A stretch of 64,000 nt of DNA from a candidate division FCPU426 bacterium (GCA_963840035.1 CAWIXE010000003.1:416001-480000); one strand, 5' to 3'. Shown: positions 14,315-61,081, numbered from the stretch's first letter. The notes: a model not told the origin generated them from the letters alone. Translations and numbers: made by a program.

Positions 14315-14457
14315 GAATTTTAGATTCTGGATTCTAGATTCTGAATTAGGAAATGAAACAATAAAACAAAAAGCCCCGGTTTTACCGGGGCTTTTTGTTT
14401 TATTGTTTGTGGTGTTATGTTTTTAATCCAAAATCTAAAATCCAGAATCTAGAATTC
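14315..14457. repeat. Inverted heptamer-array element (unit RGATTCT) enclosing a terminator
   Basis: Left GAATTTT AGATTCT GGATTCT AGATTCT GAATTA; right TAATCC AAAATCT AAAATCC AGAATCT AGAATTC. Confidence 0.9.
14356..14408. terminator. Bidirectional intrinsic terminator between convergent genes
   Basis: Perfect 25-bp inverted repeat AAACAATAAAACAAAAAGCCCCGGT-ttt-ACCGGGGCTTTTTGTTTTATTGTTT. Confidence 0.9.
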
Positions 14458-14458
14458 C

Positions 14459-14893
14459 TTATTTAACCTTCTTTATCGGCGCTGTTGATGCCTTGTCTAC
14501 TTCTGACTGGAGCTGTTTAATCCAGGCATCATATTCGGGTTTGATCTCGTTTAGTTTCTGCCTTGACTGTTTTACCCATTTTGATTCGGGCGGGGTAAAT
14601 AGGTCGACGACCGTCTGGAACTCCACGTAGGCGTTTTTAAGAGCGTTATCTTCCATGAGCATCTGGTATTCAATCTCGTTGATCTCTTTTTTCGCGAGTT
14701 TTTCGTCATAATATTTCTTTTTCATGTCGGGGTTCCTGTAAAAATCAAGGAATTTGACCCCTTCGTTATATTCCCTTTTTGCCCTTTTAACAACCTCAAA
14801 ATAAGCCATGAAATAAGCGATGATCAGGCATCCTATTACAAGTCCCGCGATGATCAGGGCGTCTTTCTTCTTGTCTTTTTTATCTTCAGCCAT
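14459..14893 (-). CDS. Hypothetical single-TM membrane protein
   Basis: 144-aa ORF with AGGAGG RBS, one hydrophobic helix and its own consensus promoter. Confidence 0.8.
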   Translation of the reverse strand: MAEDKKDKKKDALIIAGLVIGCLIIAYFMAYFEVVKRAKREYNEGVKFLDFYRNPDMKKKYYDEKLAKKEINEIEYQMLMEDNALKNAYVEFQTVVDLFTPPESKWVKQSRQKLNEIKPEYDAWIKQLQSEVDKASTAPIKKVK

Positions 14894-14920
14894 GAATTCC
14901 TCCTAATATTTGATTTTTTG

Positions 14921-14949
14921 ATTATAGAATGAAAAACCGTTATTGTCAA
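14921..14949 (-). promoter_or_regulatory. Sigma70-type promoter for the 144-aa gene
   Basis: TTGACA (14949-14944), 17 nt, TATAAT (14926-14921) on the minus strand. Confidence 0.8.
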
Positions 14950-14971
14950 TATAACAGATTGGTTAGCAGGG

Positions 14972-15035
14972 TGATTCTGAATTCTAGATTCTGGATTCTG
15001 GATTGAAAACAAGGCGTAATCCAGAATCTAGAATC
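14972..15035. repeat. Inverted heptamer-array element (unit RGATTCT)
   Basis: TGATTCT GAATTCT AGATTCT GGATTCT GGATT, 13-nt spacer, AATCC AGAATCT AGAATC. Confidence 0.9.
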
Positions 15036-15040
15036 GCTCC

Positions 15041-15069
15041 TTGACACTAATTGAATATTATTATAAGTT
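15041..15069 (+). promoter_or_regulatory. Probable sigma70-type promoter for the recX-alaS operon
   Basis: TTGACA at 15041, 17 nt, TAAGTT. Confidence 0.55.
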
Positions 15070-15131
15070 AATAGTACCCGGAATATGTGCTATATATAAT
15101 AAGGAAGAAAACACGGCAAAAGAGGTATCAA

Positions 15132-15608
15132 ATGGCAAAAAAAGAGACGTCAGCGGCTGATTACGCCCTTAAAATGCTGGGAATACGCGATTATGGTGAG
15201 GCGGAACTCAGGGTAAAACTTGAGGCCAAAAATTATCCGGCTGATGAAATTGACAGGGTAATGGCTTCACTTAAGTCTAAAAAATTTATAAACGACAGCG
15301 CTTATGCAGCGAAAATACTCCATAAATACTCGGTAATCATGCCGTCAGGACGGGAATTAGTTAAGCTTAAAATGGAAGAAAAATCCATTAAACCTGTAGA
15401 ATACACACTGGCGCTTGAAAAAAGGGACGAGCTTGAAACGGCAAGAAGGGCTTTTAAGATGAAATTCGGCAAAACGGCCGTTTCTGAAAACCCGAATAAA
15501 ACAAGGCAAAAAGCAGCCAATTATTTGGCAACAAAAGGTTTTGATTATGATATAATTGAAAATATCCTGAACGATGAAATTAAAGGAGGAAATGACTTTG
15601 AACAGTAA
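15132..15608 (+). CDS. recX: Regulatory protein RecX
   Basis: ALKMLGIRDYGEAELRVKL, FINDSAYA and YLATKGF; directly upstream of alaS; ATG follows GAGG. Confidence 0.8.
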   Translation: MAKKETSAADYALKMLGIRDYGEAELRVKLEAKNYPADEIDRVMASLKSKKFINDSAYAAKILHKYSVIMPSGRELVKLKMEEKSIKPVEYTLALEKRDELETARRAFKMKFGKTAVSENPNKTRQKAANYLATKGFDYDIIENILNDEIKGGNDFEQ

Positions 15609-18219
15609 CGAACTGAGAAAATCATACTTGCAGTTTTTCGCGGAAAGGGGCCATACCATAAGGCCTTCTTCTTCGCTTATACCTGATGACGCCTCGCTGC
15701 TATTTACCGTGGCCGGGATGGTGCCTTTTAAGAACCATTTTCTCGGCACGATACCGCTTACTTTTACAAGGGCTACGTCATCCCAGAAATGCATCAGGAC
15801 AAACGACATAGATAATGTCGGCCGTACGCGCAGGCACCATACTTTCTTTGAAATGCTCGGCCATTTTTCATTCGGCGATTATTTTAAGAAAGAGGCCATC
15901 GAGTGGATATGGGAATTCCTGACAGAAACCGTAAAACTGCCCAAAGACAGGCTTTATATAACGGTATACTTAGACGACGATGAAGCTTATGAAATATGGA
16001 ATAAAAAGATGAAAATCCCGGCGGACCGCATTTTCAGGCTGGGCAAGGAGACGAATTTCTGGGAAATGGGGCCGGTGGGGCCGTGCGGCTACTGCAGCGA
16101 GATTTATTTTGATTTTGAGGGCGGCAATAAGGGAAAAGTTACAGCCGAAGACATTGAGAAGAACGACGACAGGTTCCTGGAAATATGCAACAGCGTTTTT
16201 ACGGAGTTTGACAAGCAGCCTGACGGCACGCTCGGGCCGCTTAAGCAGAAGAACATAGATTTCGGAATGGGGCTTGAAAGGCTCGCTGTTGTCTCACAGG
16301 GGGTGTTTTCAAACTTTGAAACAGACCTTTTCATGCCCATCATAAAGGAAGTGGCTGACAAGGCCGGCACCGTATACGGAAAAAACCCGGATACCGATGT
16401 GTCCTTAAGGGTTGTAGCCGACCACGCCAGGGGCGTTACTTTTTTAATCGGAGACGGGGTGCTGCCTTCGAATGAAGGCCGCGGATATGTTTTAAGAAGG
16501 CTCATCAGGCGCGCAGTGCGCCACGGCAGGCGGCTCGGGTTCAGGGAAACATTTTTATCAAAGGTGGTGCCTGTAGTCCTGCATATCATGGGCGAGGCTT
16601 ATCCGGAAACGGCGCAGAGGAAAGATTACATAATGCAGATTATAAAACTGGAAGAGGATAAGTTTCAGGAGACCATGGATAAGGGCATTGAAATATTAAA
16701 CCAGGAAATTGAAACACTTAAAAAATCAGGCGCAAGCGTGCTCTCCGGGGATATAGTTTTTAAGCTTTATGACACCTTCGGATTCCCCATAGAAATAACA
16801 GAGGAAATACTGACTGAACAGAAATTATCAGCCGACAAGGAAGGGTTTAAGAAAAACATGGAAGCCCAGAGGGAAGCCGCGAAGAAAGCGTGGAAAGGCG
16901 TGAATGTCAGCGCTGCGGACACCGTACCCGAGGAAATAATTAAAAATATAGCGGTCACTAAGTTCATGGGATATGAGGCGTTTGAAGAAAACGGATGCCG
17001 GGTTATCGCCATAGTTAAGGATAAAAAGAAAATATCTGAGGCAGGGCAGGGTACACAAGCCCTTGTTATACTCGATAAAACGCCGTGCTATGGCGAAGGC
17101 GGAGGCCAGGTGGGCGACCAGGGAATGATGTCGTCCGGGGATGTATCAGCTGAAATCCTTGACACACAGAAGACCGAGGACCGTTTTGTTCACAGGGTAA
17201 AGGTCGTCAAGGGAATTATAAAAGAAGGCGATACGCTGAAAGTATCCGTCAACAGGGAATCGCGCGCCGCGATTATGAAGAATCATACCGGCACGCACCT
17301 TCTGCAGGCTGCTTTGCGCAATATTTTAGGGGCGCATGTGGAACAGGCCGGTTCTTATGTCGGCCCTGACAGGCTCAGGTTTGACTTCACGCACTTTGCC
17401 GCTTTAACCGAAGAGGAAACAAAAAGGACCGAAAAGATGGTTAATAAGTGGGTGCAGGAATCCATCCCGGTAAGCGTGAAGGTTATGACCGTAACTGAAG
17501 CAAAAAACACGGGCGCCATGGCCCTTTTTGAGGAAAAATATAAAGGCGAGGTAAGGGTGGTTTCAGTGGGCGATGTGTCCAAGGAACTCTGCGCGGGAAC
17601 GCATCTGCGTAACATAGGCGAGATAGGGTTGTTTAAGATAGTGTCTTCAGCCTCTACTGCGGCCGGAATAAGAAGGATAGAGGCCTTAACCGGAGAGGCC
17701 TCATACAACATGGTTGTTGAAAATGATAATTTCATTAAGGAACTCAAGGCGTCCTTTAAGACAACGGATATGAACGAACTCGAAGAGAAGATAAAGAAAC
17801 TGATGAAAGACTATAAGGAAATGGAAAAAAAGGTCGACGGCGTTAAAAAAGCGGGAATGATGAAGAATGTGGATGATTACATAAACTCGGCAAAGGAAAT
17901 AAACGGGGTTAAGGTGATTACCATAAAATTTACCGATGTTGAAAAGGACGCTGTCCGCCAGTTGGGCGATGTGCTCCGGGAAAAGGTAAAGAAAGCAGTG
18001 ATAGTCATAGCCACCATAAATGAAGGCAAGGCTGGTTTCCTTTCAATGGTGACTGACGACTTAACAGACAGGTTTGACGCTTCAAAGATAGTCAAGCAGG
18101 TAGCCGCCATATGCGGCGGAGGCGGAGGCGGCAAGAAGAACATGGCCGAAGCCGGGGCAAAAGACATCTCAAAAATAGACGAAGCTCTTTTAGAGACGGA
18201 AAAAGCCGTTAAAGGATGA
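15592..18219 (+). CDS. alaS: Alanine--tRNA ligase
   Basis: LLFTVAGMVPFK, RHHTFFEMLG, NHTGTHLL and ELCAGTH; ATG 15592 follows AGGAGG. Confidence 0.98.
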   Translation: MTLNSNELRKSYLQFFAERGHTIRPSSSLIPDDASLLFTVAGMVPFKNHFLGTIPLTFTRATSSQKCIRTNDIDNVGRTRRHHTFFEMLGHFSFGDYFKKEAIEWIWEFLTETVKLPKDRLYITVYLDDDEAYEIWNKKMKIPADRIFRLGKETNFWEMGPVGPCGYCSEIYFDFEGGNKGKVTAEDIEKNDDRFLEICNSVFTEFDKQPDGTLGPLKQKNIDFGMGLERLAVVSQGVFSNFETDLFMPIIKEVADKAGTVYGKNPDTDVSLRVVADHARGVTFLIGDGVLPSNEGRGYVLRRLIRRAVRHGRRLGFRETFLSKVVPVVLHIMGEAYPETAQRKDYIMQIIKLEEDKFQETMDKGIEILNQEIETLKKSGASVLSGDIVFKLYDTFGFPIEITEEILTEQKLSADKEGFKKNMEAQREAAKKAWKGVNVSAADTVPEEIIKNIAVTKFMGYEAFEENGCRVIAIVKDKKKISEAGQGTQALVILDKTPCYGEGGGQVGDQGMMSSGDVSAEILDTQKTEDRFVHRVKVVKGIIKEGDTLKVSVNRESRAAIMKNHTGTHLLQAALRNILGAHVEQAGSYVGPDRLRFDFTHFAALTEEETKRTEKMVNKWVQESIPVSVKVMTVTEAKNTGAMALFEEKYKGEVRVVSVGDVSKELCAGTHLRNIGEIGLFKIVSSASTAAGIRRIEALTGEASYNMVVENDNFIKELKASFKTTDMNELEEKIKKLMKDYKEMEKKVDGVKKAGMMKNVDDYINSAKEINGVKVITIKFTDVEKDAVRQLGDVLREKVKKAVIVIATINEGKAGFLSMVTDDLTDRFDASKIVKQVAAICGGGGGGKKNMAEAGAKDISKIDEALLETEKAVKG

Positions 18220-18223
18220 CATA

Positions 18224-18643
18224 TTGAAAATAATTTGTTTTGACCCGGGTACGGTGCGCATAGGCGCGGCCATCAGCGATGAGACCGCTTACCTGGCAAG
18301 GCCGCTGGAGTTTATCAAGGTCAATGAAAGGCTTGATATTAACCTGCTGGAACTTGCTAAAAGAGACCCGTTTGAAGTTATAGTCGTAGGCAATCCGCTT
18401 AACATGGACGGGACTAAAAATCCGCACACAAAGCACGGCGACGAACTTGTGGAGAGGCTTACAAGGCTGTTTCCGGATATACCCCTGGTACTGCGTGATG
18501 AAAGGCTCACCACCAGGGAAGCAAACGACATAATGATACGGGCTGACATGAGCCGTAAAAAAAGGAAGAAAAAAGTGGACAGCCTGGCAGCTGTCCTTAT
18601 ATTGCAGGGCTACTTGGACCACCTGCGTTCGGGGAAAAAATGA
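18224..18643 (+). CDS. ruvX: Holliday junction resolvase-like protein RuvX/YqgF
   Basis: FDPGTVRIGAAISD, DERLTT and VDSLAAVLILQGYLD; alaS-ruvX-mltG synteny. Confidence 0.92.
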   Translation: MKIICFDPGTVRIGAAISDETAYLARPLEFIKVNERLDINLLELAKRDPFEVIVVGNPLNMDGTKNPHTKHGDELVERLTRLFPDIPLVLRDERLTTREANDIMIRADMSRKKRKKKVDSLAAVLILQGYLDHLRSGKK

Positions 18644-19689
18644 TAAAAAAAGAGACGCCACAGGCCGGTTTTTTAAACGAAAAAAATATTGTGATTCTTG
18701 CAGCCACTATAGCTGTGGTGCTGTTTCTTTCGGTTTTTGTATCGCTTTCATTGCCGTCTTCATACGGGCGTAAAGAGCAAAAGGTTGTTTACATCCTTTA
18801 CGGGTCAGGGTTAAAGAAAATAACCGCGGCGCTTGACAGCGCCGGGCTGCTCAGAAACCCTGTTTTATTTCAGGCGTACTCGCTGATAACCGGAAGCTAT
18901 AAAAAAATGAAAGCCGGGGAATATGAATTTTACACATCTGACAGCGCCCTGGCAATAGCCGGCAAGATGGTGAGGGGCGAATTTATGCTCCATAAGGTGC
19001 TTGTACCTGAAGGCTCGGACATATATGACGTAGCTGAAATACTTTCCTCACAGAATCTGGCGGATGGCGCGAAGTTTTTAGCCGCGGCAAAGGATCCGGC
19101 ATTACTCAAAAGCCTGGGTATTGACGCGCCTACGGCTGAAGGCTATCTTTTTCCTGATACATATTCATTTGTGCTCGGGGAGAGCAATAAAAAAATTATT
19201 TCCACAATGTACGACAGGTTTAAATCAAAGTCTCCGGTGGATCCTTCTAAGAATTATGAGGTTGCGGGTTATAAAATATCGGGGTATAAGCTTTTGATCC
19301 TGGCGTCCATTATTGAAAAGGAAGCGCAGCTTGAGTCTGAGAGGCCGGTAATTGCCTCTGTGTTTTATAACAGGCTGAAGTCGCCTGAAGCCTACCAGCG
19401 CAGGCTGGAATCATGCGCGACAGTGCGTTACGCGCTCGGCAAAAGGACCGGCACTATTACATATAAAGACCTGAAATCACCGTCAAAGTATAATACTTAC
19501 ATCACAATAGGCCTTCCGCCCGGGCCGATATGCAACCCGGGGCTGCTTTCCATGCTGGCCGCAATAAACCCGGCAAAGACCAATTACAGGTATTTTGTAG
19601 TATGGGAACAGGGCGAGCATACTTTTTCAGAGACGCTTCAGGAACATAATAACGCGAAAAATAAAAACAGGAAACAGAGGGCACAGTGA
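18640..19689 (+). CDS. mltG: Endolytic transglycosylase MltG
   Basis: EGYLFPDTY, LASIIEKEA, SVFYNRL and GLPPGPICNPG. Confidence 0.95.
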   Translation: MIKKETPQAGFLNEKNIVILAATIAVVLFLSVFVSLSLPSSYGRKEQKVVYILYGSGLKKITAALDSAGLLRNPVLFQAYSLITGSYKKMKAGEYEFYTSDSALAIAGKMVRGEFMLHKVLVPEGSDIYDVAEILSSQNLADGAKFLAAAKDPALLKSLGIDAPTAEGYLFPDTYSFVLGESNKKIISTMYDRFKSKSPVDPSKNYEVAGYKISGYKLLILASIIEKEAQLESERPVIASVFYNRLKSPEAYQRRLESCATVRYALGKRTGTITYKDLKSPSKYNTYITIGLPPGPICNPGLLSMLAAINPAKTNYRYFVVWEQGEHTFSETLQEHNNAKNKNRKQRAQ

Positions 19690-20657: not shown

Positions 20658-20682
20658 CTAAAAAGTCATATAAGGGGAAAAA

Positions 20683-26482: not shown

Positions 26483-26490
26483 GAGGATTT

Positions 26491-29365: not shown

Positions 29366-29991
29366 AAAAGATAGCTGTTATAGATTACGGCATGGGTAAC
29401 CTTCACAGCGTTATGAAGGCTCTGCAGCGGGAAAAGATACCTGCAATCCTTACGGACAAACCGTCAGTCATCAGGAAAGCCTGCGGAATAATACTTCCGG
29501 GGGTCGGCGCTTTTAATGACGCCATGAAGGAAATAAAGAAACGTAAATTGCAGGGTGTTTTAACGGAAGAAGTTGAAAACGGCAAGCCTATCATGGGTAT
29601 ATGCCTTGGCATGCAGCTGCTTTTTTCGCAATCAGCAGAGTTTGGAAACCATAAAGGATTGGGGTTCATAAAGGGAAAAGTAATCAAATTCAAAAAAGGC
29701 ATGAAAGTGCCGCACATGGGCTGGAACAGGCTCAAAATAGTCAACAGGAAGTCTAAAGTCATGAAAGGCATAAAGGACAACACGTATTTCTACTTTGTCC
29801 ACTCATACTACACGGTTCCAACGGATAAAAAAGCCATATTGACAAAAACGCAATATGGTAATACTATCTTTACCTCGGCGGTGGAAATGGGCAATGTATT
29901 CGGCTTTCAGTGCCACCCGGAGAAATCAAGCGAAACAGCGTTGAGGATATATAAGAACTTCTATGATATATGCAAAGGCCGTTTGAGTTAA
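29362..29991 (+). CDS. hisH: Imidazole glycerol phosphate synthase, glutaminase subunit
   Basis: DYGMGNL, LPGVGAF, GICLGMQ, PHMGWN and HPEKS. Confidence 0.96.
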   Translation: MKKIAVIDYGMGNLHSVMKALQREKIPAILTDKPSVIRKACGIILPGVGAFNDAMKEIKKRKLQGVLTEEVENGKPIMGICLGMQLLFSQSAEFGNHKGLGFIKGKVIKFKKGMKVPHMGWNRLKIVNRKSKVMKGIKDNTYFYFVHSYYTVPTDKKAILTKTQYGNTIFTSAVEMGNVFGFQCHPEKSSETALRIYKNFYDICKGRLS

Positions 29992-30143
29992 AGAGACAGG
30001 AGATAGGAGACAGAAGTAAGGGTAAGAACTTAAGAGGTTAAGAGACAAGAGATTGGAGACAGGAGTAAGCCGTTTTTAAGTACGCAAGAGCTCGAGCGCT
30101 GGAATGCATTACTTTTGTCTCCAGTCTCCTGTCTCTTAAACTC
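29985..30143. repeat. Three 36-nt heptamer blocks (unit GGAGACA): two direct, one inverted
   Basis: Blocks at 29985-30020 and 30034-30069 align without gaps to the reverse complement of 30108-30143. Confidence 0.9.
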
Positions 30144-30171
30144 TACTGAACTTAAAATAACAGGAGAAACC

Positions 30172-30906
30172 ATGCAGATTATACCCGCAATTGACATAAG
30201 AAAAGGCAAGTGCGTCCGCCTCATACAGGGTGATGTGCGCGATGAGACCGTGTACTCGAAAGAGCCTGTGGATGTGGCAAAACTGTGGCAGGTTCAGGGC
30301 GCGAAGCTGATACATGTCGTTGATTTAGACGGCGCTTTGACAGGCACGACTAAGAATATTGATATAATAATGAAAATTATAAAAGCTTTAAGGATAAAAA
30401 TAGAAGTCGGCGGCGGCCTTCGCGATGAGGAAGATATAAAAAAATATATAAAAGCTGATGTTAAAAGGGTAATACTTTCAACTTCAGCCATATCCAAGCC
30501 GGGTTTCCTTGAGGAAATGATAGAAAAATACAAGGATAAAATAGTGGTCGGAGTTGACGCGAAAGACGGATACATAGCTGTCAAAGGCTGGAAAGATATA
30601 ACGCAGATAAAGACCATTGACTTCATAAAGGACCTTGAGAAGAAAGGCGTTAAGACCATAGTCTATACCGACATAAACAGGGACGGGGTATTAAAAGGCC
30701 CGAATATAAAAGGCATAGTAAAGGTCTTAAAGAGCACGCGCATGAGGGTAATAGTCTCAGGCGGCATCACAAAACTGAAGAATATTGAGAAAGTAATGGA
30801 GCTTGATAAAAAATACGGCAACATAGAGGGAATCATAGTCGGAAAAGCCCTTTATACCGGAAGCATGGATTTGAAAGAGGCGATCAAGGTAGCGAAAGAC
30901 GTTTAG
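30172..30906 (+). CDS. hisA: ProFAR isomerase
   Basis: IIPAIDIRKGKCVRLIQG, HVVDLDGA and TDINRDG; ATG 30172 follows AGGAG. Confidence 0.96.
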   Translation: MQIIPAIDIRKGKCVRLIQGDVRDETVYSKEPVDVAKLWQVQGAKLIHVVDLDGALTGTTKNIDIIMKIIKALRIKIEVGGGLRDEEDIKKYIKADVKRVILSTSAISKPGFLEEMIEKYKDKIVVGVDAKDGYIAVKGWKDITQIKTIDFIKDLEKKGVKTIVYTDINRDGVLKGPNIKGIVKVLKSTRMRVIVSGGITKLKNIEKVMELDKKYGNIEGIIVGKALYTGSMDLKEAIKVAKDV

Positions 30907-30961
30907 GAATTGAAGATAGTAGATTGTGGATTGCGGATTAAATGCCAAATGCCGAATGAGA
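30906..30961 (+). repeat. Eight in-phase heptamers of two families, no inverted arm
   Basis: GGAATTG AAGATAG TAGATTG TGGATTG CGGATTA AATGCCA AATGCCG AATGAGA. Confidence 0.75.
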
Positions 30962-30986
30962 TCTTAGCAATAACAAAGGATAATCA

Positions 30987-31745
30987 ATGCTTACAAAACG
31001 TATTATACCTTGCCTGGACGTAAACAAAGGGCGAGTGGTAAAAGGCATAAAATTTCTTAACCTCGTTGACGCAGGGGACCCGGTTGAAGCGGCTTATGAA
31101 TATAACCTGGCCGGGGCCGATGAAGTGGTGTTCCTCGATATAACAGCCTCCCATGAAAAACGCAAGACTATCATTGATGTCATCCGCAAAACCGCGGAAA
31201 AAGTATTCATACCCTTAACCGTGGGCGGCGGCATACGCGCTGTCGCTGACATGGAACTCATACTTAAAAACGGAGCGGACAAGATTTCCGTCAATACCGC
31301 TGCCGTATACAACCCCAAACTCATAAAAGAAGGCGCCAAGAAATTCGGCAGCCAGTGCATAGTCCTGGCAGTTGACGCAAAGCGCAGGGAAAAAGGCGGA
31401 TGGGAAGTCTACACCCACGGCGGAAGGACTGCCACCGGAATAGACGCCATACAATGGATCAAAAAAGCCGTAAAGCTCGGTGCGGGCGAAATACTGCTTA
31501 CCTCCATGGACGCCGACGGAACGAAAGCCGGGTATGACATTCCACTTAACAAAGCGGTCTCGGAAGCCGTAGACGTTCCTGTCATAGCCTCAGGCGGCGC
31601 GGGAAGCCCCGAGCATATGCTGCACGTATTAAAGGAAGGCAAAGCCGACGCGGTGCTGGCGGCCTCCATATTTCACTATAAGGAATACACGGTCGGTTCG
31701 GTTAAAAAGTACCTGGCTGACAGGGGAATACCAATAAGACTGTAG
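30987..31745 (+). CDS. hisF: Imidazole glycerol phosphate synthase, cyclase subunit
   Basis: [23 protein letters not shown] and IASGGAG. Confidence 0.97.
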
Positions 31746-33059: not shown

Positions 33060-33063
33060 TAAC

Positions 33064-33336
33064 ATGAAATTCATTTATGACAAGGTAAAGGCGGATAAGT
33101 TACTGAAAGAACGCAAGATAGACTTAAAGGAGATTGAAGCCTTGCTTTTAAGGGAGGGTTATATTGCCCTCATACAAAACAAGGCCAGAATTGGGCAGTA
33201 TATTATGATTGTTAAATATAAGGGTTATATTTACGCGCTGCCATGTTTGTTTGATAAAGCAGGAAATATTGTCATTAAAACCGCTTATCCGACACGAAAA
33301 TACAATAAAAGGTATGGAGGGAATTATGAAAACTAA
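33064..33336 (+). CDS. BrnT-like type II toxin
   Basis: 90 aa; F.YD..K...L.KER.I and IKTAYPTRK; overlaps the downstream antitoxin. Confidence 0.7.
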   Translation: MKFIYDKVKADKLLKERKIDLKEIEALLLREGYIALIQNKARIGQYIMIVKYKGYIYALPCLFDKAGNIVIKTAYPTRKYNKRYGGNYEN

Positions 33337-33631
33337 GTACAAACTGGATAAAGAAGAGCAGTGGAATGAAGATCACGCTGATGAATTCGTTCCGGTGACC
33401 GGGGCGGAGAAGAAAAGGTTTGACAGGGCTCTCGCAATGATGAGGAAGAAAAAGGCTGTAACCCTGCGCATAAACGTCAATGACCTTGGGAAAATAAAGG
33501 AAAAAGCTGAAAGGGAAGGGCTTCCTTATCAGACCCTCATATCAAGCGTTCTGCATAAGTATGCCGATAATCGGCTGAGTGAGAAGGACGAATCTCAGTC
33601 GTACGGGAAAAAGGCAAATAAAGCAAAGTAG
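33326..33631 (+). CDS. BrnA/CopG-like ribbon-helix-helix antitoxin
   Basis: VTLRINVNDLGKIKEKAEREGLPYQTLISSVLHKY; ATG 33326 follows GGAGG. Confidence 0.8.
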   Translation: MKTKYKLDKEEQWNEDHADEFVPVTGAEKKRFDRALAMMRKKKAVTLRINVNDLGKIKEKAEREGLPYQTLISSVLHKYADNRLSEKDESQSYGKKANKAK

Positions 33632-37152: not shown

Positions 37153-38912
37153 AAAAATACATCGTATTTGTTCTGTCGGTACTGGCGTCCTCAATTATAT
37201 TCGGGCAGGATGTCCCACCCATTCGTGATACGAAGCCGGTTTCTGTACCGACGGTATTGGCGGTTGCAGTGACATATACTGCGGCTGTTATAACACCGGT
37301 TGCGGCAGTTTTACCGGATACAGTTACTGCAACCGCGGCCCCAGCGGGATTGACTTTGACGGCAGTATCGCCGGTTTCAATTACCGGAACGGTCAGCCCG
37401 ACGGGATCGACTTTGACGGCAGTATCGCCGGTTTCAATTACCGGAACGGTCAGCCCGACGGGATTGACTTTGACGGCAGTATCGCCGGTTTCAATTACCG
37501 GAACGGTCAGCCCGGCGGGATTAACTTTGACGGCGGCATCTCAGGTTCCGATGGTTGCGCCGCCGAGAGAAACCACTCAATCAGCTGACGATTTAAGCCC
37601 TTCAAACATTAATTTTGATACCTCCGGTTTAAACAGCATAAAACTTACCTGGGCACCAAAGTTTAAAGAAAATGTCTACTATAATGTATACAGGTCAGGT
37701 GCTGCCGCGGAATACGCAAGGCTAAACGCCGCGGTTTTTGAGAAGCCTGAATATGTGGATTCATCCATCACAAGCGCGACTTCATATTATTATAAGGTGG
37801 AAGCCATTGATTTAAGCGGGAACGCCTATTTCTCGGCCACCAGGACTGTCAAGTCGGCGGATATATTCATGCCGAACATGCCGTATGGTTTCAAGGCATA
37901 TCAGGACATACAGTCAATAATCCTGAAATGGTCCATGCCAGGCCAGACTACTTATGCTGTATCGGGGTATAATATATACAGGGGAAAGACCTCTGATAAG
38001 CAGGATTTCATAAAGTTTATTCCAGCGCAAAAGTCAAACTTCAGTGATGAGGATGTGGAGCCGGCTATCAGGTATTATTATAGCATGGCTACGGCCGATA
38101 TCAAAGGCAACGAATCAAAAAAGTCGGACATTTCATCCACAATGGCGTTTCCTCCCCCAAGGACAGGGCTCGTAACAATGACCTCGGGTTACCGTAATAA
38201 CATTTTTGACAATTACGGCCTCAACGTGGACGCGGGTTTTACCTATTACATAGGCTCCATAGTCGGGGAGCACCAGCTCGGAGGCAGGAAGGTAAGCGAT
38301 AATTTCAGCAAGCTCGGATTATGGCTTTTAACTGTGGACGCCAAGTGGACATTTTTTAACGAATTTGAGACATGGCCTTCGGTCGGGATTGGCGCGTCAT
38401 GCTCGCTGATACTGAAGGATTCCATAGGCGGCAATTCCGATGTGAGGTCAAAATCAACTTCCTTTGCCGTGGGCGATTCGCTCTTAACGGCGCAGGGCCT
38501 TTACGTGGCAGCCTCCAAAAAATTAATGTTTGAAAACACCGTTCACGCCGGATATTCCATGGGCATTAATAAAAGGGGCATTGCGGGGTTCGTGCCTTAC
38601 CTGGCTTCGTCATTCGTGTCTTCTTCGGAGTCAACCAGCGCGGACACTTCGCTTGACTTAAGGAACGCTTATTTTCTGGGATACTCAAGGCCGCTTATTA
38701 ATAAAATGGGGCTTAAAGTAGAGTATGTGGTCCCGGTGGACGTAAACGGGTCAATAAATAAAAATCCAGTAATGCCGGACACCTATGTCATAAATACGCA
38801 CATAGACAGGCTCATTAATTTTGATATCGGCTACATACACTACCGGGGAGGATACGCGTGGGTGGGTTATATAAACCTAAGGTTTACGGTATACCCGAGC
38901 CCGTATAAATAA
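37149..38912 (+). CDS. Exported protein: S/T/P repeats, two fibronectin type III-like domains, probable C-terminal beta-barrel
   Basis: Signal peptide; LTW..YNVYR..YVD..YYYKVEA and LKW..GYNIYRG..D..YYY; amphipathic C-terminal strands. Confidence 0.7.
   Translation: MKKYIVFVLSVLASSIIFGQDVPPIRDTKPVSVPTVLAVAVTYTAAVITPVAAVLPDTVTATAAPAGLTLTAVSPVSITGTVSPTGSTLTAVSPVSITGTVSPTGLTLTAVSPVSITGTVSPAGLTLTAASQVPMVAPPRETTQSADDLSPSNINFDTSGLNSIKLTWAPKFKENVYYNVYRSGAAAEYARLNAAVFEKPEYVDSSITSATSYYYKVEAIDLSGNAYFSATRTVKSADIFMPNMPYGFKAYQDIQSIILKWSMPGQTTYAVSGYNIYRGKTSDKQDFIKFIPAQKSNFSDEDVEPAIRYYYSMATADIKGNESKKSDISSTMAFPPPRTGLVTMTSGYRNNIFDNYGLNVDAGFTYYIGSIVGEHQLGGRKVSDNFSKLGLWLLTVDAKWTFFNEFETWPSVGIGASCSLILKDSIGGNSDVRSKSTSFAVGDSLLTAQGLYVAASKKLMFENTVHAGYSMGINKRGIAGFVPYLASSFVSSSESTSADTSLDLRNAYFLGYSRPLINKMGLKVEYVVPVDVNGSINKNPVMPDTYVINTHIDRLINFDIGYIHYRGGYAWVGYINLRFTVYPSPYK
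37341..37535 (+). repeat. 3.4 tandem copies of a 57-bp (19-aa) coding repeat
   Basis: P[A/T]G[L/S]TLTAVSPVSITGTVS at 37341, 37398 and 37455, partial at 37512. Confidence 0.95.
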
Positions 38913-39004
38913 CGATTTTCAATTTTCTATTTTAAATTTTCAATTTAGGAAAATAAGCCCGGATCTGCCGTTGAATTTAATTGAAAATTTAGAATTGAAA
39001 ATTG
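38913..39004. repeat. Inverted heptamer-array element (unit CAATTTT)
   Basis: CGATTTT CAATTTT CTATTTT AAATTTT CAATTTA ... TTAATTG AAAATTT AGAATTG AAAATTG. Confidence 0.85.
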
Positions 39005-40740: not shown

Positions 40741-40806
40741 AGCCCAAAGCCCAGAGCTCAAGGGAAAATAGTCAGGACTTGGGCTATGGGCTTTGAGCTT
40801 TGGGCT
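40741..40806. repeat. Inverted heptamer-array element (unit AGCCCAA)
   Basis: AGCCCAA AGCCCAG AGCTCAA, 17 nt, TTGGGCT ATGGGCT TTGAGCT TTGGGCT. Confidence 0.9.
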
Positions 40807-40877
40807 AAGACCGCCAAACGGTCGGATAAGCACAACGAAAGATGGCTGCTAACTAAGCGTGAACAGGAGCAAAACAA

Positions 40878-45373: not shown

Positions 45374-45463
45374 CCTTAACCCTTATACTTATCCTTAACC
45401 TTAGCATTTGGAATTTGCTTAGGTCTAAAGGCTAAGGATAAGTATTAAGGGTAAGGGTTAAGG
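45374..45463. repeat. Inverted 6/7-mer array element (unit CCTTA[A/T])
   Basis: CCTTAAC CCTTAT ACTTAT CCTTAA CCTTAG ... GCTAAGG ATAAGT ATTAAGG GTAAGG GTTAAGG. Confidence 0.85.
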
Positions 45464-46597: not shown

Positions 46598-46615
46598 CAG
46601 CAAGGCCAATATGTG

Positions 46616-46800: not shown

Positions 46801-46810
46801 GGGGCATAAG

Positions 46811-48526: not shown

Positions 48527-48544
48527 ACCGGCTCGGAGGAAAAA

Positions 48545-50602: not shown

Positions 50603-50618
50603 GAAAAGGAGGATATAA

Positions 50619-51182: not shown

Positions 51183-51248
51183 AAAACAGTCTTCAGCGGC
51201 GCTAAAAACTGCTATAATATTACGGGGATTTCAATTACAGGGATATGC

Positions 51249-52775: not shown

Positions 52776-52776
52776 T

Positions 52777-53475: not shown

Positions 53476-53477
53476 TA

Positions 53478-55526: not shown

Positions 55527-55632
55527 ATCAACAGATATCATAGCAAATCAAAGATCAATACTGCGTTTTGACCGGGCTGGCGGTAAATCCCGATTTAAAC
55601 GCCTTATTTATAAGCCTGTTTTCATTTTCCTC

Positions 55633-55660
55633 TTGAATTCCAGCCCGTAAAAGGTATAAT
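55633..55660 (+). promoter_or_regulatory. Probable sigma70 promoter giving a ~190-nt leader
   Basis: TTGAAT, 16 nt, TATAAT. Confidence 0.6.
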
Positions 55661-55857
55661 AACTCCATTAATTTCAGCCCATACGGCCGGTATTCATAAA
55701 CGGTTAAGTTAAGGAAAGATATTGATGCACCCCAGGTAAGCCATGCGGGTAGTTTTGACCGCGGGCTTTAGACGGCTCACAAAGGAAGTCCTGTCCGGCA
55801 ATAAATCCCTTAAAATTTGATGTTATCGGACTAAGTGCATATAAAACTGGAGAACAG

Positions 55858-57849
55858 ATGGAAGAAAAAAAGAACATTTTTCAACAGGCAAAAGAGTTTT
55901 TGGTAGGAGGCGCCAGGAGCGTGCGCGACCCTCAGATATTTCATAAGGTATCCCTTATAGCCTTAATGGCATGGATAGGCCTGGGCGCCGACGGTATGAC
56001 CTCGTCATGCTATGGCCCTGAAGAATCGTTTATTACACTCGGAAGCCACTATGCACTGGGAGTGTTTGTGGCAATCGCGTCAGTTATAACCATTATAGTT
56101 ATCAGTATGAGTTATTCCCAGCTTATTGAGTTATTTCCGGCCGGCGGCGGCGGGTACCTTGTAGCCAGTAAATTGCTGTCGCCCACAGCCGGGGTTGTGT
56201 CAGGCTCTGCTCTAATAATCGACTATGTCCTGACTATCAGTTTATCCATCGCGGCTGGAGCCGATGCCCTATTTAGTTTTTTACCGGCGGATTTGCATGT
56301 CTATAAACTGTGGTTCGCAATTTTCGGGGTGGTTATTCTTACGGTCCTTAATCTAAGGGGGGTAAAAGAGTCTATCGCGGTAATCTCACCGATATTCGTT
56401 GTTTTTATCATAACGCATGTTTTTATAATCATATATGCTTTCGGTATGAATATAGGTAACTTCGGGTCGGTAATATCACAGACAACTGGCGAATTAAAAA
56501 ACACCGCAGGCATGCTTGGTATAGGCGGCATGATTATGTTAGTGCTGCGGGCGTATTCAATGGGCGCCGGAACATTCACCGGTATTGAGGCTGTGAGCAA
56601 CGGGATGAATGTATTCAAGGAACCCAAGGTTAAGAATGCCAAAACCACCATGGTATACATGGCTGCTTCGCTTTCTTTCCTGGTGCTCGGGATAACGCTG
56701 TCGTATGTGCTCTTCAGGCTAAATGTCCAGCCCGGGAAGACATTAAACGCGGTTTTGTTTGAAACCGTTACACAAGGCTGGGGCAACGGCGGAAAGGCTT
56801 TTGTCTTTATAACGCTGCTCTCGGAGGCCGCGCTCCTTTTTGTCGCGGCCCAGACCGGGTTCATCGGCGGCCCGGCCATCATAGCAAATATGGCGCGCGA
56901 CAAATGGCTGCCGACAAGGTTTGCGCTCTTATCCGACAGGCTTGTGGCCCATAACGGAATATTCATAATGAGCATAGCTGCCGTGTGCACGCTGCTCATC
57001 GCAAAGGGTTCGGTCAAATATCTCGTGGTCCTTTATTCAATAAACGTTTTTATAACCTTCACCCTGGCCCAGCTGGGCATGGTCGCGCACTGGTGGACAT
57101 CAAGGAAAAAGGAACCGCACTGGAAGAAAAAAATAGCCGTTAACGGCATCGGCCTTGCGTTAACCACGTTTATTCTGGTTATGGTAACGGTAATTAAATT
57201 TGCCGAAGGCGGATGGATTACCGTGGTCATTACTTCGGCGCTTATCGGGCTGTGTTATTTTATAAAAGGGCATTATAAGAAAGCGGGAAAAGAACTCCTG
57301 AAGCTGGACTCCCTCATCGAGGCGGCTGCGACGTATTCGCCGAACATGGTGGATGAAAAAAAGAAAAAGCAAGTGCCGCACTTTGATCCTGCCGCAAAAA
57401 CCGCCGTGGTATTTGTAAACGGGTTTAACGGGCTCGGGATGCACACGGCGCTTTCCATTATCAGGCTTTTTGGCAAGGCTTTTAAGAATTTTGTTTTTGT
57501 CCAGATAGGAATTGTGGATACAGGTAATTTCAAAGGCACTGAAGAAGTGGACCATCTCCAGACATATATACAAGGAGAGGTTGATTCATATGTGGATTTT
57601 TTCGTGGAGAACGGGTATTACGCTGAAGGCATTGTGTCAGTAGGTACGGAAGTCGTGGAAGAGGCGAATAAACTGGTCCCCAAGATACGCGATAAGTTTA
57701 CAGACCCGATTTTCTTCGGAGGCCAGCTGGTATTTAAGGAAGACACATTCATGACAAACCTGCTTCATAATTATATAGTATTCCAGCTGCAGCAGTCCAT
57801 GTACCACCAGGGCATTACTTTCGTTATACTTCCAATACGCGTTTACTAG
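55858..57849 (+). CDS. APC-superfamily transporter, KimA/YdaO-like (probable K+ uptake)
   Basis: GADGMTSSCYGPEE, GGGGYLVAS, IDYVLT, NLRGVKES, FTGIEAVSNG and KFAEGGW; soluble C-terminal domain; next to kdp. Confidence 0.8.
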   Translation: MEEKKNIFQQAKEFLVGGARSVRDPQIFHKVSLIALMAWIGLGADGMTSSCYGPEESFITLGSHYALGVFVAIASVITIIVISMSYSQLIELFPAGGGGYLVASKLLSPTAGVVSGSALIIDYVLTISLSIAAGADALFSFLPADLHVYKLWFAIFGVVILTVLNLRGVKESIAVISPIFVVFIITHVFIIIYAFGMNIGNFGSVISQTTGELKNTAGMLGIGGMIMLVLRAYSMGAGTFTGIEAVSNGMNVFKEPKVKNAKTTMVYMAASLSFLVLGITLSYVLFRLNVQPGKTLNAVLFETVTQGWGNGGKAFVFITLLSEAALLFVAAQTGFIGGPAIIANMARDKWLPTRFALLSDRLVAHNGIFIMSIAAVCTLLIAKGSVKYLVVLYSINVFITFTLAQLGMVAHWWTSRKKEPHWKKKIAVNGIGLALTTFILVMVTVIKFAEGGWITVVITSALIGLCYFIKGHYKKAGKELLKLDSLIEAAATYSPNMVDEKKKKQVPHFDPAAKTAVVFVNGFNGLGMHTALSIIRLFGKAFKNFVFVQIGIVDTGNFKGTEEVDHLQTYIQGEVDSYVDFFVENGYYAEGIVSVGTEVVEEANKLVPKIRDKFTDPIFFGGQLVFKEDTFMTNLLHNYIVFQLQQSMYHQGITFVILPIRVY

Positions 57850-57887
57850 TTAAAGTCAAAGGTTAAAAGTCAAAACCCAAAAGTGAA
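57849..57887 (+). repeat. One-armed heptamer array (unit GTCAAAA)
   Basis: GTTAAA GTCAAAG GTTAAAA GTCAAAA CCCAAAA GTGAA starting at the transporter stop codon. Confidence 0.7.
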
Positions 57888-57906
57888 CCTAAATCAGCCA
57901 TGGCTA

Positions 57907-57935
57907 TTGACAATATGTACATAATAACGTACAAT
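57907..57935 (+). promoter_or_regulatory. TA promoter with YefM-type operator cores
   Basis: TTGACA, 17 nt, TACAAT; TGTACA (57916) and CGTACA (57928) 12 bp apart. Confidence 0.8.
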
Positions 57936-57974
57936 TTAATTATGATAGAAATTTAAAACAAAAGGGGTTAAAAC

Positions 57975-58226
57975 ATGGACTTAATAATTCCCGTATCAGA
58001 GGTCAGGGGGAAGCTGGCTTCCCTTGTGAAGCGCATCAAAAAAGAGGGGAAGCACCTTATACTTACCAAGAACGGCAGGGCCGCGGCTGTGATGATATCC
58101 CCGGAAGAGCTTGAGACACTTGAAGTTATGGCAAACAAAAGCCTGCTAGCATCCATATTAAGGGGTATTGAGGATGCTGAAAACCGAAGGGTATATACAC
58201 ATAAGGAAGTTTTTAAGAATGTTTGA
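57975..58226 (+). CDS. Phd/YefM family antitoxin
   Basis: IPVSEVRGKLASLV..ILTKNGRAAAVMISPEE. Confidence 0.9.
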   Translation: MDLIIPVSEVRGKLASLVKRIKKEGKHLILTKNGRAAAVMISPEELETLEVMANKSLLASILRGIEDAENRRVYTHKEVFKNV

Positions 58227-58521
58227 GCTTTTATATACCAGGGAAGCAAAAGACAATATAGATAAACTTTCAATAAAGAAAAAGCGGCAGATAAAGGACG
58301 CTCTTGAACGCATCGCCGCTGACCCGGAAACAGGAAAACACCTGTCACACGACCTAAAAGGGCTATACTCCTGCCGGTCTGGTGATTATAGGATTATATA
58401 TAAGGTTTTCAGGGAAAAGGTAACAGTACTTGTTATTACTGTGGATCATAGGAAAGACGTCTATGAAAAACTCCCCAAAAAAACAGCAAATATCAAGGAT
58501 ATAAGCTTAAACGAAGAATAA
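58219..58521 (+). CDS. RelE/ParE family toxin
   Basis: LKGLYSCRSGDYRIIY..VITVDHRKDVYE; 8-nt overlap with the antitoxin. Confidence 0.9.
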   Translation: MFELLYTREAKDNIDKLSIKKKRQIKDALERIAADPETGKHLSHDLKGLYSCRSGDYRIIYKVFREKVTVLVITVDHRKDVYEKLPKKTANIKDISLNEE

Positions 58522-58628
58522 TGTAAATCTTCAATTAAATCCCATATTTATAAGGCGAAAAGCTTTTTTTTCTGTGTTATTTTGCGGCGTTTTCAGTCCC
58601 GTGTATTTTGCTTTCTCTTATATTTTCC

Positions 58629-58657
58629 TTGAACCACCTTAAAAATAAGGTTATAAT
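58629..58657 (+). promoter_or_regulatory. Probable sigma70 promoter of the hisC2-aro operon
   Basis: TTGAAC, 17 nt, TATAAT. Confidence 0.65.
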
Positions 58658-58703
58658 ACAATTCCTTGTGAAGTATCAGGCGAGGATATTAGGTTGTGGC
58701 CTT

Positions 58704-58738
58704 TAATTTCAAATTAGAAATCAGAAATTAGAAATTGA
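58704..58738. repeat. Heptamer array (unit AAATTAG) inside the leader hairpin
   Basis: TAATTTC (inverted unit), then AAATTAG AAATCAG AAATTAG AAATTGA. Confidence 0.75.
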
Positions 58739-58797
58739 AGCCCTCCCTACTCAAGGCACATCAAAACTTGAGACCATGAATGTAGGAGTGATGAAAG

Positions 58798-59880
58798 ATG
58801 AATAAATTTTCGGATGTAGCAAAGAAATCAGTCATGAATATCAAGCCTTATATTCCGGGCAAACCAATCGAAGAAGTCCAGCGCGAGCATGGCATTAAAA
58901 ACGTCATAAAGCTTGCCTCCAATGAAAACCCGCTCGGCCCTTCTCCACTGGCTGTTAAAGCCATGGAAAAAGCCGTAAAAAACGTGAACTTATACCCTGA
59001 AAGCGGCGCGTTTTATTTAAGGCGCGCTCTGGCAAAGCACCTCAAGGTAAAGGAAAATACCCTTGTCTTTGGCAACGGCTCAAATGAGATACTAAACATG
59101 ATTGCCGAGGCTTTTGTGGAGCCGGGCGACGAGGTGATGTTTTCCGCGCTTTCATTTGTGGTTTACCACATCGCCACTGACATGGTGGGCGGCACGGCCA
59201 TTCACATACCGCACAAAGAGTTCCGTCATGACATGGACGGGTTTATAAAGAGGCTCTCTGAGAAGACAAAACTCGTATATATCTGCAATCCCAATAACCC
59301 GACCGGCACATTCATAAAAAAGGACGAGTTCGAAAAATTCATGAACGCGGTGAGCCCGAAGACCATAGTGGCCCTTGATGAGGCGTACTTTGAATATGTC
59401 CAGGACAAGAATTACCCGGACGGCATTAAATACCTTTCTAAATACCCTAACTTAATAGTGCTGCGCACATTCTCGAAAATATACGGCCTGGCCGGAATAA
59501 GGATCGGCTACGCTGTTGCCGACCCGGATATTATTGAGATAATAGAAAGGGTCAGGGCGCCTTTTAACGCCAACCTCGTGGCGCAGGCAGGGGCTGAAGC
59601 GGCTGTTGCGGATAAAAAGCACTTAAAGAAGACCGTGAAAGTGAACAATGAAGGAAAAAAATACTTATATGCGGAATTAAAAAAACTCGGCATTGAATGC
59701 GTGCCGTCGCAGACAAACTTTATCTTTATGAAGTTCAAGTCAAACGGAAAGGTGGTCTTTGAGGCGCTGCTTAAACACGGCATAATCATTAGGCCCCAGC
59801 ACGACGACTACGGCAGGATAACGATAGGTACTATGGCTGAGAACAGGAAGTTAGTGGGGGCTTTAAAGAAGGTTGTTTAG
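58798..59880 (+). CDS. hisC: Histidinol-phosphate/aromatic aminotransferase (second HisC paralog)
   Basis: KLASNENPLG, NPNNPTG, DEAYFEY and RTFSKIYGLAG; in the aro/tyr operon. Confidence 0.9.
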   Translation: MNKFSDVAKKSVMNIKPYIPGKPIEEVQREHGIKNVIKLASNENPLGPSPLAVKAMEKAVKNVNLYPESGAFYLRRALAKHLKVKENTLVFGNGSNEILNMIAEAFVEPGDEVMFSALSFVVYHIATDMVGGTAIHIPHKEFRHDMDGFIKRLSEKTKLVYICNPNNPTGTFIKKDEFEKFMNAVSPKTIVALDEAYFEYVQDKNYPDGIKYLSKYPNLIVLRTFSKIYGLAGIRIGYAVADPDIIEIIERVRAPFNANLVAQAGAEAAVADKKHLKKTVKVNNEGKKYLYAELKKLGIECVPSQTNFIFMKFKSNGKVVFEALLKHGIIIRPQHDDYGRITIGTMAENRKLVGALKKVV

Positions 59881-59889
59881 GTAGTTTAA

Positions 59890-59950
59890 AGCTCAGAGCC
59901 CAAAGCCCAAGGGGAAGGCGGCCATGAGCTTTGGGCTCTGGGCTTTGGGA
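59890..59950. repeat. Inverted heptamer-array element (unit AGCCCAA), same family as 40741
   Basis: AGCTCAG AGCCCAA AGCCCAA, 13 nt, ATGAGCT TTGGGCT CTGGGCT TTGGGA. Confidence 0.9.
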
Positions 59951-59991
59951 TAAGACTTGGTATGCTAAAACAAAATAACGGAGGTTTTGCA

Positions 59992-61005
59992 ATGATCATC
60001 GTAATGAAACCGAAAGCTTCAAAGAAACAGGTGGACCATGTTTGCGCTAAGATTAAGGAATTCAAGCTCGCTCCGCACATATCAAGGGGCAAAGAGACCA
60101 CTATCATCGGCGTCATAGGCGATGAGCGCGTGCTTCAGGGAGTGCCTTTTGAAGGTTTCTCCGGAGTTGAAAAAGTGATGCAGATACTTAAGCCGTATAA
60201 ACTTGCCAGCCGCGATTTCAAAAAGGAAAACTCTATAGTTAAGTGCGGCAATGTGGAAATAGGCGGAGATAAAGTCATTATGATAGCCGGGCCGTGTTCT
60301 GTGGAAAGCAGGAAACAGATATTGACCACAGCCAAAGCCATAAAGGAAGCGGGCGCGCACATTCTGCGCGGCGGCGCTTTTAAGCCCAGGACCTCGCCGT
60401 ACGCTTTCCAGGGTATGGGAGAAGAGGGCTTAAAACTCATGGCCGAGGCCAGGGAAGAATACGGCCTGCCGTTTGTCACTGAAGTGCTCGACACGAGGCA
60501 TGTAGCGCTTATCAATAAATACGCGGACATGTTCCAGGTCGGCGCGAGGAACATGCAGAATTTTGAACTTTTAAAAGAGGTAGGAAAGACACAGAAGCCC
60601 GTGCTCTTAAAAAGGGGCATGATGTCTACTGTCGCCGAGTGGCTCATGTCAGCCGAGTATATTCTCGCGAACGGAAACATGAACGTCATACTCTGCGAGA
60701 GGGGCATCAGGACATTTGAAACAGCCACAAGGAACACGCTGGACTTATCAGCGGTGCCGCTCGTTAAAAGCCTGACACACCTGCCGGTAGTCGTTGACCC
60801 GTCGCACGGCACAGGCAAGAAACCGCTTATCATGCCCATGTCCCGCGCAGCCGTAGCTGCCGGAGCAGACGGCATAGCCATAGAAGTGCACCCGAACCCG
60901 GATGAAGCCTTATCAGACGGAGACCAGTCGCTGGTACCGGCGGAATACAAAGTGCTTTTAAATGAATGTTCCAAAATAGCAAAAGCTATAGGAAGAACTA
61001 TATAA
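59992..61005 (+). CDS. aroF: DAHP synthase, type I-beta with N-terminal regulatory domain
   Basis: IAGPCSVES, GGAFKPRTSPY, GARNMQNF and DPSHGTG; ATG 59992 follows GGAGG. Confidence 0.95.
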   Translation: MIIVMKPKASKKQVDHVCAKIKEFKLAPHISRGKETTIIGVIGDERVLQGVPFEGFSGVEKVMQILKPYKLASRDFKKENSIVKCGNVEIGGDKVIMIAGPCSVESRKQILTTAKAIKEAGAHILRGGAFKPRTSPYAFQGMGEEGLKLMAEAREEYGLPFVTEVLDTRHVALINKYADMFQVGARNMQNFELLKEVGKTQKPVLLKRGMMSTVAEWLMSAEYILANGNMNVILCERGIRTFETATRNTLDLSAVPLVKSLTHLPVVVDPSHGTGKKPLIMPMSRAAVAAGADGIAIEVHPNPDEALSDGDQSLVPAEYKVLLNECSKIAKAIGRTI

Positions 61006-61081
61006 TTACTAATTACCAATTACGTAATTACTAATAAAGGAATGACGTTATTTGTAATCAGTCATTAGTAATTAGTAATTA
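61003..61081. repeat. Inverted heptamer-array element (unit TAATTAC)
   Basis: TAATTAC TAATTAC CAATTAC g TAATTAC ... GTAATCA GTCATTA GTAATTA GTAATTA. Confidence 0.9.

Follow-up and report, generated by a model that had tools for sequence, protein, structure and literature searches.

We analyzed a 64,000-nt stretch of DNA from a candidate division FCPU426 bacterium (GCA_963840035.1, CAWIXE010000003.1:416001-480000; this whole stretch is hereafter the window), in which intergenic spacers hold short tandem arrays of ~7-nt units (heptamers), mostly followed by an inverted counterpart. The sites studied span positions 14,315 to 61,081, and the arrays were traced through the rest of the genome (G000) and its relatives. 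The results confirmed a dispersed intergenic heptamer system with a conserved period and geometry. We consider it probable, at roughly 60%, that its elements are the non-autonomous, gene-free form of cassettes carrying four-helix-bundle genes, and that they resemble REPINs (inverted dimers of repetitive extragenic palindromes, REPs) or MITEs (miniature inverted-repeat transposable elements). The elements are copied, anchored at stop codons and turned over; their arms have a fixed polarity, a five-unit limit and identity with cassette arms, and they co-occur with the cassettes across genomes.

The genome, which is 98% complete, was scanned for tandem arrays in comparison with shuffled intergenic DNA, the gene calls coming from a simple in-house caller that missed some genes. 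The 1962 spacers (488 kb) held 659 arrays of period 7 vs. 6.9 ± 2.1 in eight dinucleotide shuffles, thus excluding chance. Period 7 stood far above periods 5 (12 vs. 7.1 in shuffles), 8 (9 vs. 4.4) and 6 (44 vs. 6.5, a modest rise), while the 70 and 71 arrays of periods 13 and 14 are likely 6+7 and 7+7 harmonics. Coding DNA held 43 period-7 arrays; genome-wide, 680 of 728 arrays were intergenic. Inverted stems numbered 298 and held 428 of these 680 arrays, and an array was present in 512 of the 1894 spacers of at least 40 nt, which gives a background of 27%.

All 11 arrays reported for the window in the original prediction were found where it had placed them. Its statement that they usually form inverted pairs holds for eight sites (14315, 14972, 30034, 38913, 40741, 45374, 59888 and 61003, where 30034 is the second left arm of the site at 29985), which form long inverted hairpins (z −2.6 to −12.5 relative to 200 shuffles). 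The remaining three (30906, 57849 and 58704) turned out to be single arms without a partner and with no pairing excess (z 0.43, 0.30 and −0.65, respectively).

The 278 elements of the genome use 77 left-arm units, which greedy clustering sorted into 33 families. In the main families, polarity is fixed (outward-in), and each has an inner end motif of its own. Among 476 arms of 12 families, 83 had three units, 171 had four and 182 had five, with a drop to 10, 5 and 2 arms for six, seven and eight units (1–2 units were counted in 23 arms). The raw lengths of the 680 arrays agree with a five-unit limit (164 arrays of five units, 6 of six). Each unit combines a conserved core with two or three variable places. 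The conserved period and geometry had thus been foreseen correctly; the units, expected to be free in sequence, are not free. A network of single-base steps joins 59 of the 77 left-arm units (228 of the 278 elements) against 20 ± 9 in the null, and a purine-purine-pyrimidine-pyrimidine core is present in 54 of the 77 vs. 44% expected. In 346 arms, adjacent units were identical 36 times, well below the 109 expected.

The two arms of an element are not mirror copies. In the CAATTTT family (n = 68), an arm was no closer to its own partner than to a swapped one (0.813 vs. 0.816, p 0.68), and p ranged from 0.04 to 0.75 in eight smaller families. Identical arms were found at different loci in 78 pairs vs. 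18 (93 arms), and in none of 51 such pairs was the partner shared. An origin of the second arm as a mirror copy of the first was rejected.

The elements are clearly anchored at gene ends. In spacers with 80–600 nt of spare room, 43 of 62 elements lie flush to the upstream stop codon vs. 9.9 expected, and 5 of 62 flush to the downstream start vs. 11 expected. Stop-side arms lie within 20 nt of the stop in 212 of 246 cases and begin exactly on it in 38, while for three other repeat families of the genome the share within 20 nt is 4–25% (5/34, 31/123 and 2/47). In the window, the predicted start at a stop codon was seen at eight sites, which begin on a stop or at most 13 nt from it, but not at 14972, 45374 and 58704. 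TGA stops are mildly under-used at arms (38/353, 11%, vs. 231/1352, 17%). A TA target was considered and discarded, the TGA depletion being weak and the right ends having no fixed TA.

Comparison of orthologous junctions (up to 28 relatives per junction, none of them of the same genus) showed junctions that were empty, filled, or filled with another unit. In G003, the closest relative by HisA identity, 400 kb contained two arrays; of 148 shared junctions, 36 were filled in G000 alone and none in G003 alone, a few G003 junctions carrying decayed arms. In 292 kb of G002 (104 junctions), 19 were filled in G000 only, 3 in the relative only and 5 in both, and four of these five had different units. 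At the junction of the window site 38913, for instance, G002 has TAATTAC arms with homologous ends. The hisA|hisF gap is 80 nt in G000 and at most 10 nt in 25 of 28 relatives, and the hisC|aroF gap is 111 nt vs. at most 25 nt in 12 of 27 loci. At hisH|hisA, G006 has a homologous element with a similar interior, G002 and G008 retain remnants, and G001 and G020 carry other units; at purS|purQ, G002 bears a decayed copy of the AGCCCAA family and G001 another unit. At aroF|tyrA (23 loci), we found four different heptamers, and 8-mers in three genomes. Arrays of 8 nt or inverted arrays of 9 nt fill the aroF|tyrA loci L272 (G012), L270 (G023) and L271 (G022) and the hisH|hisA and hisA|hisF junctions of L034 (G030); in G012, a 565-nt gap contains two runs of 7–8 perfect copies of an 8-nt unit. 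Their presence at these junctions indicates that the design also exists with periods other than 7.

That a mobile element left non-autonomous footprints, as had been proposed, is supported both by this presence/absence pattern and by copies of whole elements. One element of 102–112 nt occurs in four to five copies of 89–92% identity in both orientations; the flanks are unrelated, and the alignments end at the arm tips. One of these copies replaces a junction that is tight in G003, where the stop is directly followed by ATG. Four close copies differ by 0.17 per site in the arms and 0.095 in the cores. Another copy, shared by two gene ends, comprises an arm and a terminator, and neighboring elements belong to the same family in 59 of 272 cases vs. 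29 ± 4. Interiors of at least 22 nt resemble another interior in 34 of 155 elements and are unrelated in 121. The largest interior group comprises 15 members from three unit families, built around a palindromic TATTATAATA core. One core with three units, taken together with the single-base network, suggests that the units drift from one another. The core forms a -10-like box on both strands, and this interior may be a mobile promoter part; its sites include G000:C1:689105, C1:775829, C1:780255, C3:38658, C3:39173 and ten more.

The arms are also targets of other elements. One insertion sequence (IS)-like element has all three of its copies inserted into TAATTAC arms, always at an identical position (G000:C3:54936, C3:228272 and C2:827274), and two of the four copies of a second lie in GATTCT arms (C2:388111 and C2:169466). 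Both have ends of their own; from their motifs we take them to be IS30-like, and they resemble ISs that target REPs. An unrelated palindromic repeat family of 120–180 nt with TGTCATTGCGAG ends and ~90% identity occurs at G000:C1:275079-275259 and at least nine other places, several copies being nested within heptamer elements.

A link to four-helix-bundle genes had been mentioned in the original prediction, together with the absence of such a gene from the window. Both statements stand: none of the eight TIGR02436 matches of the genome lies in the window, and elsewhere the same arms do enclose these genes. GxxExxY genes, also named there as candidates, are absent from the genome. L001, L006 and L007 (the last at G000:C1:786256-786699) lie between inverted heptamer arms, and L002 between related longer repeats. 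A strict arm test was positive for 9 of 35 four-helix-bundle genes vs. 3 of 249 other small genes. Among 85 full-length proteins from the genome and its relatives, 84 of them encoded away from contig ends, 32 of the 84 genes were armed, with period 7 in 24, period 8 in 6 and period 9 in 2. A quick tree (107 columns) included a strongly supported clade of 8 rows armed with period 8 alone, and an almost unarmed clade of 23 rows comprising the sole full-length copies of the array-poor G003, G004 and G007. Arm identity extends to gene-free sites: a 31-nt arm of L007 recurs identically at two of them, and the aroF|tyrA gap of G022 contains 28 nt of that genome's own cassette arm. L001 has a homologue of known structure with five chains, 2GSC (E 2e-16), and the single 23S rRNA gene (3022 nt) has no array. 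A further locus, L008 (G000:C2:634170-634661), present in several relatives, has a longer product with a weak TIGR02436 match (model positions 4-69); it may be a form with a suffix domain.

The density of arrays also follows these genes across 30 genomes, with a median of 5.0 per 100 kb in genomes with heptamer-clade genes vs. 0 in those without (15 vs. 15 genomes). The unselected count of all matches correlated with array density with a rho of 0.63 (23 genomes).

Several observations weigh against reading the elements as the gene-free form of these cassettes. The clades of the 15 vs. 15 comparison were chosen after the arm labels were seen, with seven divergent unarmed rows dropped, among kin that are not independent and in samples of 20–400 kb; if the dropped rows are included, G018, G022 and G023, each with no arrays in 40 kb, join the group with such genes. 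Dispersed units match those of the genome's own cassettes in 25% vs. 7%, but in three of nine genomes the match is zero, and linkage alone can explain the covariation of protein and period. Of 15 junctions that are orthologous to an armed cassette in a relative, ~5 hold an array in G000, with other units, which is not above the 27% background. The six largest families, CAATTTT included, have no cassette gene among the eight matches, L006 being ambiguous, and 113 interiors contained no four-helix-bundle debris. Only the minority of interiors mentioned above resemble one another, and some of these are terminator-like and may be convergent. The five-unit limit is softer in relatives, where 18 of 209 arrays have at least six units. 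Inspection of aligned ends by eye revealed no target duplication, in a set without strain-level empty sites; none of the eight matches to the Y1 transposase (PF01797) has an array nearby (−500/+900 nt). We know of no catalytic activity of four-helix-bundle proteins. Among the listed genes enclosed by paired arms, there was no autonomous transposase with the same ends, PF01797 being the only transposase family surveyed.

If the elements do derive from the cassettes, their spread could be envisaged as follows. New copies would land at or just behind stop codons, and nearby more often than far away. Strand transfer would likely be performed in trans by another enzyme, and a pentamer of the four-helix-bundle protein would bind a five-unit arm, each subunit reading a single unit; the five-unit limit would follow from this, and the period would depend on the clade of the protein. 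This binding step is suggested by the five-chain homologue 2GSC, by the five-unit limit itself and by analogy with Avd, a protein that the available part of a preprint calls similar to S23 proteins and that binds a 31-nt stem-loop via all five protomers (10.1101/2023.10.23.563531). Several features would make insertions tolerable: the stop codon is retained by the arm, the right arm is followed by a ribosome-binding site, and a terminator or a -10-like core is present in many interiors. After landing, unequal recombination or gene conversion among the ~600 arms likely reshuffles them one unit at a time; through this, the two arms of an element would lose their match, and units would be able to drift apart into new families. 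The paired arms would be RNase III substrates, by analogy with the intervening sequence (IVS) of the Coxiella 23S rRNA, in which heptamer repeats precede the S23p open reading frame (ORF) within a 28-bp stem that is cut by RNase III, according to the part of PMC4990558 available. We tentatively extend this to a transposase-free mobile system, in which the pentamer would serve as a ruler reading five units of 7 nt (or of 8 or 9 nt, depending on the clade) on single-stranded nucleic acid and, aided by an enzyme borrowed from the host, would deliver the arms to the ends of translated genes.

Alternatively, the arms might be RNA signals domesticated by the host, i.e., binding or processing sites for a four-helix-bundle ring or RNase III, located at 3′ ends and between cistrons, that selection maintains and that multiply through gene conversion instead of insertion. 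Single arms mostly carry an outward unit directly past the stop (82 vs. 14), outward arms stand before terminators in 37 cases and after them in 10, and both the five-unit limit and the avoidance of identical neighbors suggest constraint. Some elements, such as that at hisH|hisA shared with G006, have been inherited across genera. In the strand that is transcribed, G-U is more frequent than A-C (467 vs. 360), but the ratio is alike in own and swapped pairs (150:101 vs. 161:109), and the partner arms are not fine-tuned to pair. Moreover, the closest relative, G003, does practically without arrays, units switch at the same junction, and whole copies have unrelated flanks. Since many interiors contain a terminator or promoter-like core, the hairpin may not sit in one transcript. 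We regard this explanation as unlikely.

Still less probable is templated repeat addition, also raised in the original prediction, in which a telomerase-like enzyme would extend both 3′ ends of a break by about five units before they are joined across filler DNA. This would account for the inverted geometry, the fixed polarity, the independence of the arms, the unrelated interiors and the first units that overlap a stop codon. It found no support, however: the genome gave no match to the reverse transcriptase domain RVT_1 (PF00078), identical adjacent units are depleted threefold, identical arm haplotypes are in excess, and the elements are copied with their cores.

Replication slippage, which would create simple-sequence repeats with a 7-bp bias that are later inverted by template switching, is a poor candidate for most arrays. 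A heptamer excess is known in many bacteria, and the 7-bp bias was hypothesized by Mrazek et al. 2007, as cited in the accessible part of PMC4692102. A few long perfect runs do exist, both here (at least 10 units in 6 of 680 arrays) and in relatives. Slippage makes identical neighbors, so that their depletion argues against it; lengths drop sharply beyond five units, template switching yields mirror copies, which the partners are not, and close relatives with similar GC content have no arrays. For the bulk of the arrays, slippage was thus largely refuted by the unit counts and the depletion of identical neighbors, and it stays as an explanation for the rare long runs.

The formation of G-quadruplexes, proposed for the Xanthomonas and Nostoc heptamers, which share the four-unit mode, the inverted pairs and the closeness to stop codons (PMC4692102, in part), is hardly conceivable as the general cause and was refuted by unit composition: the most frequent units, those of the CAATTTT type (132 of the 680 arrays) and the TAATTAC type (48), are AT-rich and lack a G-tract, yet form the same geometry.

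The individual sites of the window illustrate these features. The first paired element, of the RGATTCT family (14315..14456, z −12.5), consists of a five-unit left arm at 14315-14349 and a right arm at 14422-14456, with a two-way terminator-like hairpin in its interior, and takes up the spacer in which parB and a 144-aa gene converge, from one stop codon to the other; its G003 counterpart is 55 nt, array-free and has a similar terminator. A second element of this family (14972..15035, z −6.4), with a five-unit left arm and a shortened right arm, lies between divergent genes upstream of recX. The hisH|hisA element of the GGAGACA family (29985..30145) has two tandem left arms and one right arm (30034-30145, z −7.6). 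At hisA|hisF, a single five-unit arm of the GATTGT type (30906..30958, plus strand) starts at the hisA stop and is followed by ~2.7 AAATGCC units; it had been listed as GATTG/AATGCC, and these two runs (GATTG and AAATGCC) are not reverse complements of each other. In this region (30906-30990), the ancestral hisF ribosome-binding site within the hisA end appears decayed, with a new one after the inserted arm.

The paired element at 38913..39004 belongs to the CAATTTT family, the largest one with 75 elements. The purS|purQ element (40741..40807, z −4.6) and the hisC|aroF element (59888..59952, z −4.9) are both of the AGCCCAA family, and that at 45374..45463 (CCTTAAC family, z −5.9) has mixed 6/7-nt units and lies 83 nt past the purF stop. 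Two more single arms on the plus strand are of the AGTCAAA type, beginning on the last base of a stop codon (57849..57885), and of the AAATTAG type, with five units upstream of hisC (58704..58738). In the aroF|tyrA element of the TAATTAC family (61003..61082, z −5.1), the aroF stop codon forms the start of the first unit. The names given earlier to hisH, hisA, purS, purQ, hisC and aroF were borne out by matches above the NCBIfam cut-offs or by the top match, and that of tyrA is the top NCBIfam family but under its cut-off. An Rfam search of the window gave no match.

Elsewhere in the window, an ORF of 3333 aa (14-10015), mostly built of a 12/24-nt repeat (~8.8 kb), probably encodes a giant surface protein, and a 57-nt coding repeat (37345-37534; 3.3 copies, 96% match) lies within a 587-aa gene. 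Beside or near intergenic repeats, there are two pairs of small overlapping genes (57975-58521 and 33064-33631), which look toxin-antitoxin-like to us, with no NCBIfam match at 1e-8.

Each of the known classes compared with the elements agrees with them in part and differs in part. Tandem heptamers were reportedly described in cyanobacteria as short tandemly repeated repetitive sequences (STRRs) by Mazel et al. The intergenic heptamers of Xanthomonas and Nostoc (Rehm et al. 2015) have the same period of 7, about four units, inverted pairs and closeness to the stop (at most 50 nt, on the sense strand), their function being left open in the part of PMC4692102 available. As repeats, the arrays of G000 fall into this class, with the same period-7 enrichment and inverted, stop-close pairs. 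There, however, one G-rich unit is used per genus, while here the 77 left-arm units are mostly not G-rich and the G-tract is absent; the five-unit limit, the whole-element copies and the four-helix-bundle tie go beyond that description.

REP dimers and REPINs share with our elements the multi-copy inverted dimers 20–100 nt apart, the location near gene 3′ ends, the ability to supply the stop, the several families per genome and a partner gene enclosed by repeats (PMC3733652, as far as available). In contrast, the arms studied here are tandem arrays instead of tagged palindromes, with no GTAG/CGTC at the ends in 11 families, and the enclosed gene encodes a four-helix-bundle protein instead of an HUH/Y1 transposase, no REP-associated tyrosine transposase (RAYT) lying beside an array.

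MITEs are short, non-coding elements with terminal inverted repeats and near-identical dispersed copies. Our elements are likewise short, non-coding and bounded by terminal inverted repeats, with near-identical copies for a minority (34 of 155 interiors); they differ in that no target duplication was seen in the aligned ends and no transposase with the same ends among the listed genes within paired arms, the arms are more variable than the interiors and most interiors are unrelated. The ORF-bearing 23S IVS of Coxiella likewise encloses its four-helix-bundle ORF in a terminal stem of ~28 bp that holds heptamer repeats (PMC4990558, in part), and an S23p/TIGR02436 ORF within an inverted heptamer stem was found at L001, L006 and L007, outside the window; in G000, however, cassettes and gene-free elements, the latter in their hundreds, occupy spacers of protein-coding genes and not the 23S rRNA gene. 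Avd, the accessory protein of diversity-generating retroelements (DGRs), forms a pentameric barrel related to S23 and binds ~31-nt RNA, which offers a model for arm binding (10.1101/2023.10.23.563531, in part), but the reverse transcriptase and template repeat of DGRs are absent here.

The repeats as such are thus known from Xanthomonas, Nostoc and the Coxiella IVS, and as a system they are not described in the literature searched: in a search that covered subscription papers poorly, no paper joined four-helix-bundle genes to dispersed heptamer elements. This genome adds statistics on the five-unit limit, neighbor avoidance, uncoupled arms, stop anchoring, unit switching on one core and the period by protein clade. 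Both the heptamer excess in bacteria and the function of the 23S-IVS four-helix-bundle family are open questions, according to the parts of PMC4692102 and PMC4990558 available. The ~680 arrays in dozens of unit families were enough to exclude slippage and quadruplexes as a general cause, and they yield predictions, namely five units per pentamer, a period set by the protein clade and landing at stop codons. If true, the ruler system would connect the 23S IVS protein family with the STRRs and with the heptamers of Xanthomonas, and it would account for the special place of seven among bacterial repeat lengths.

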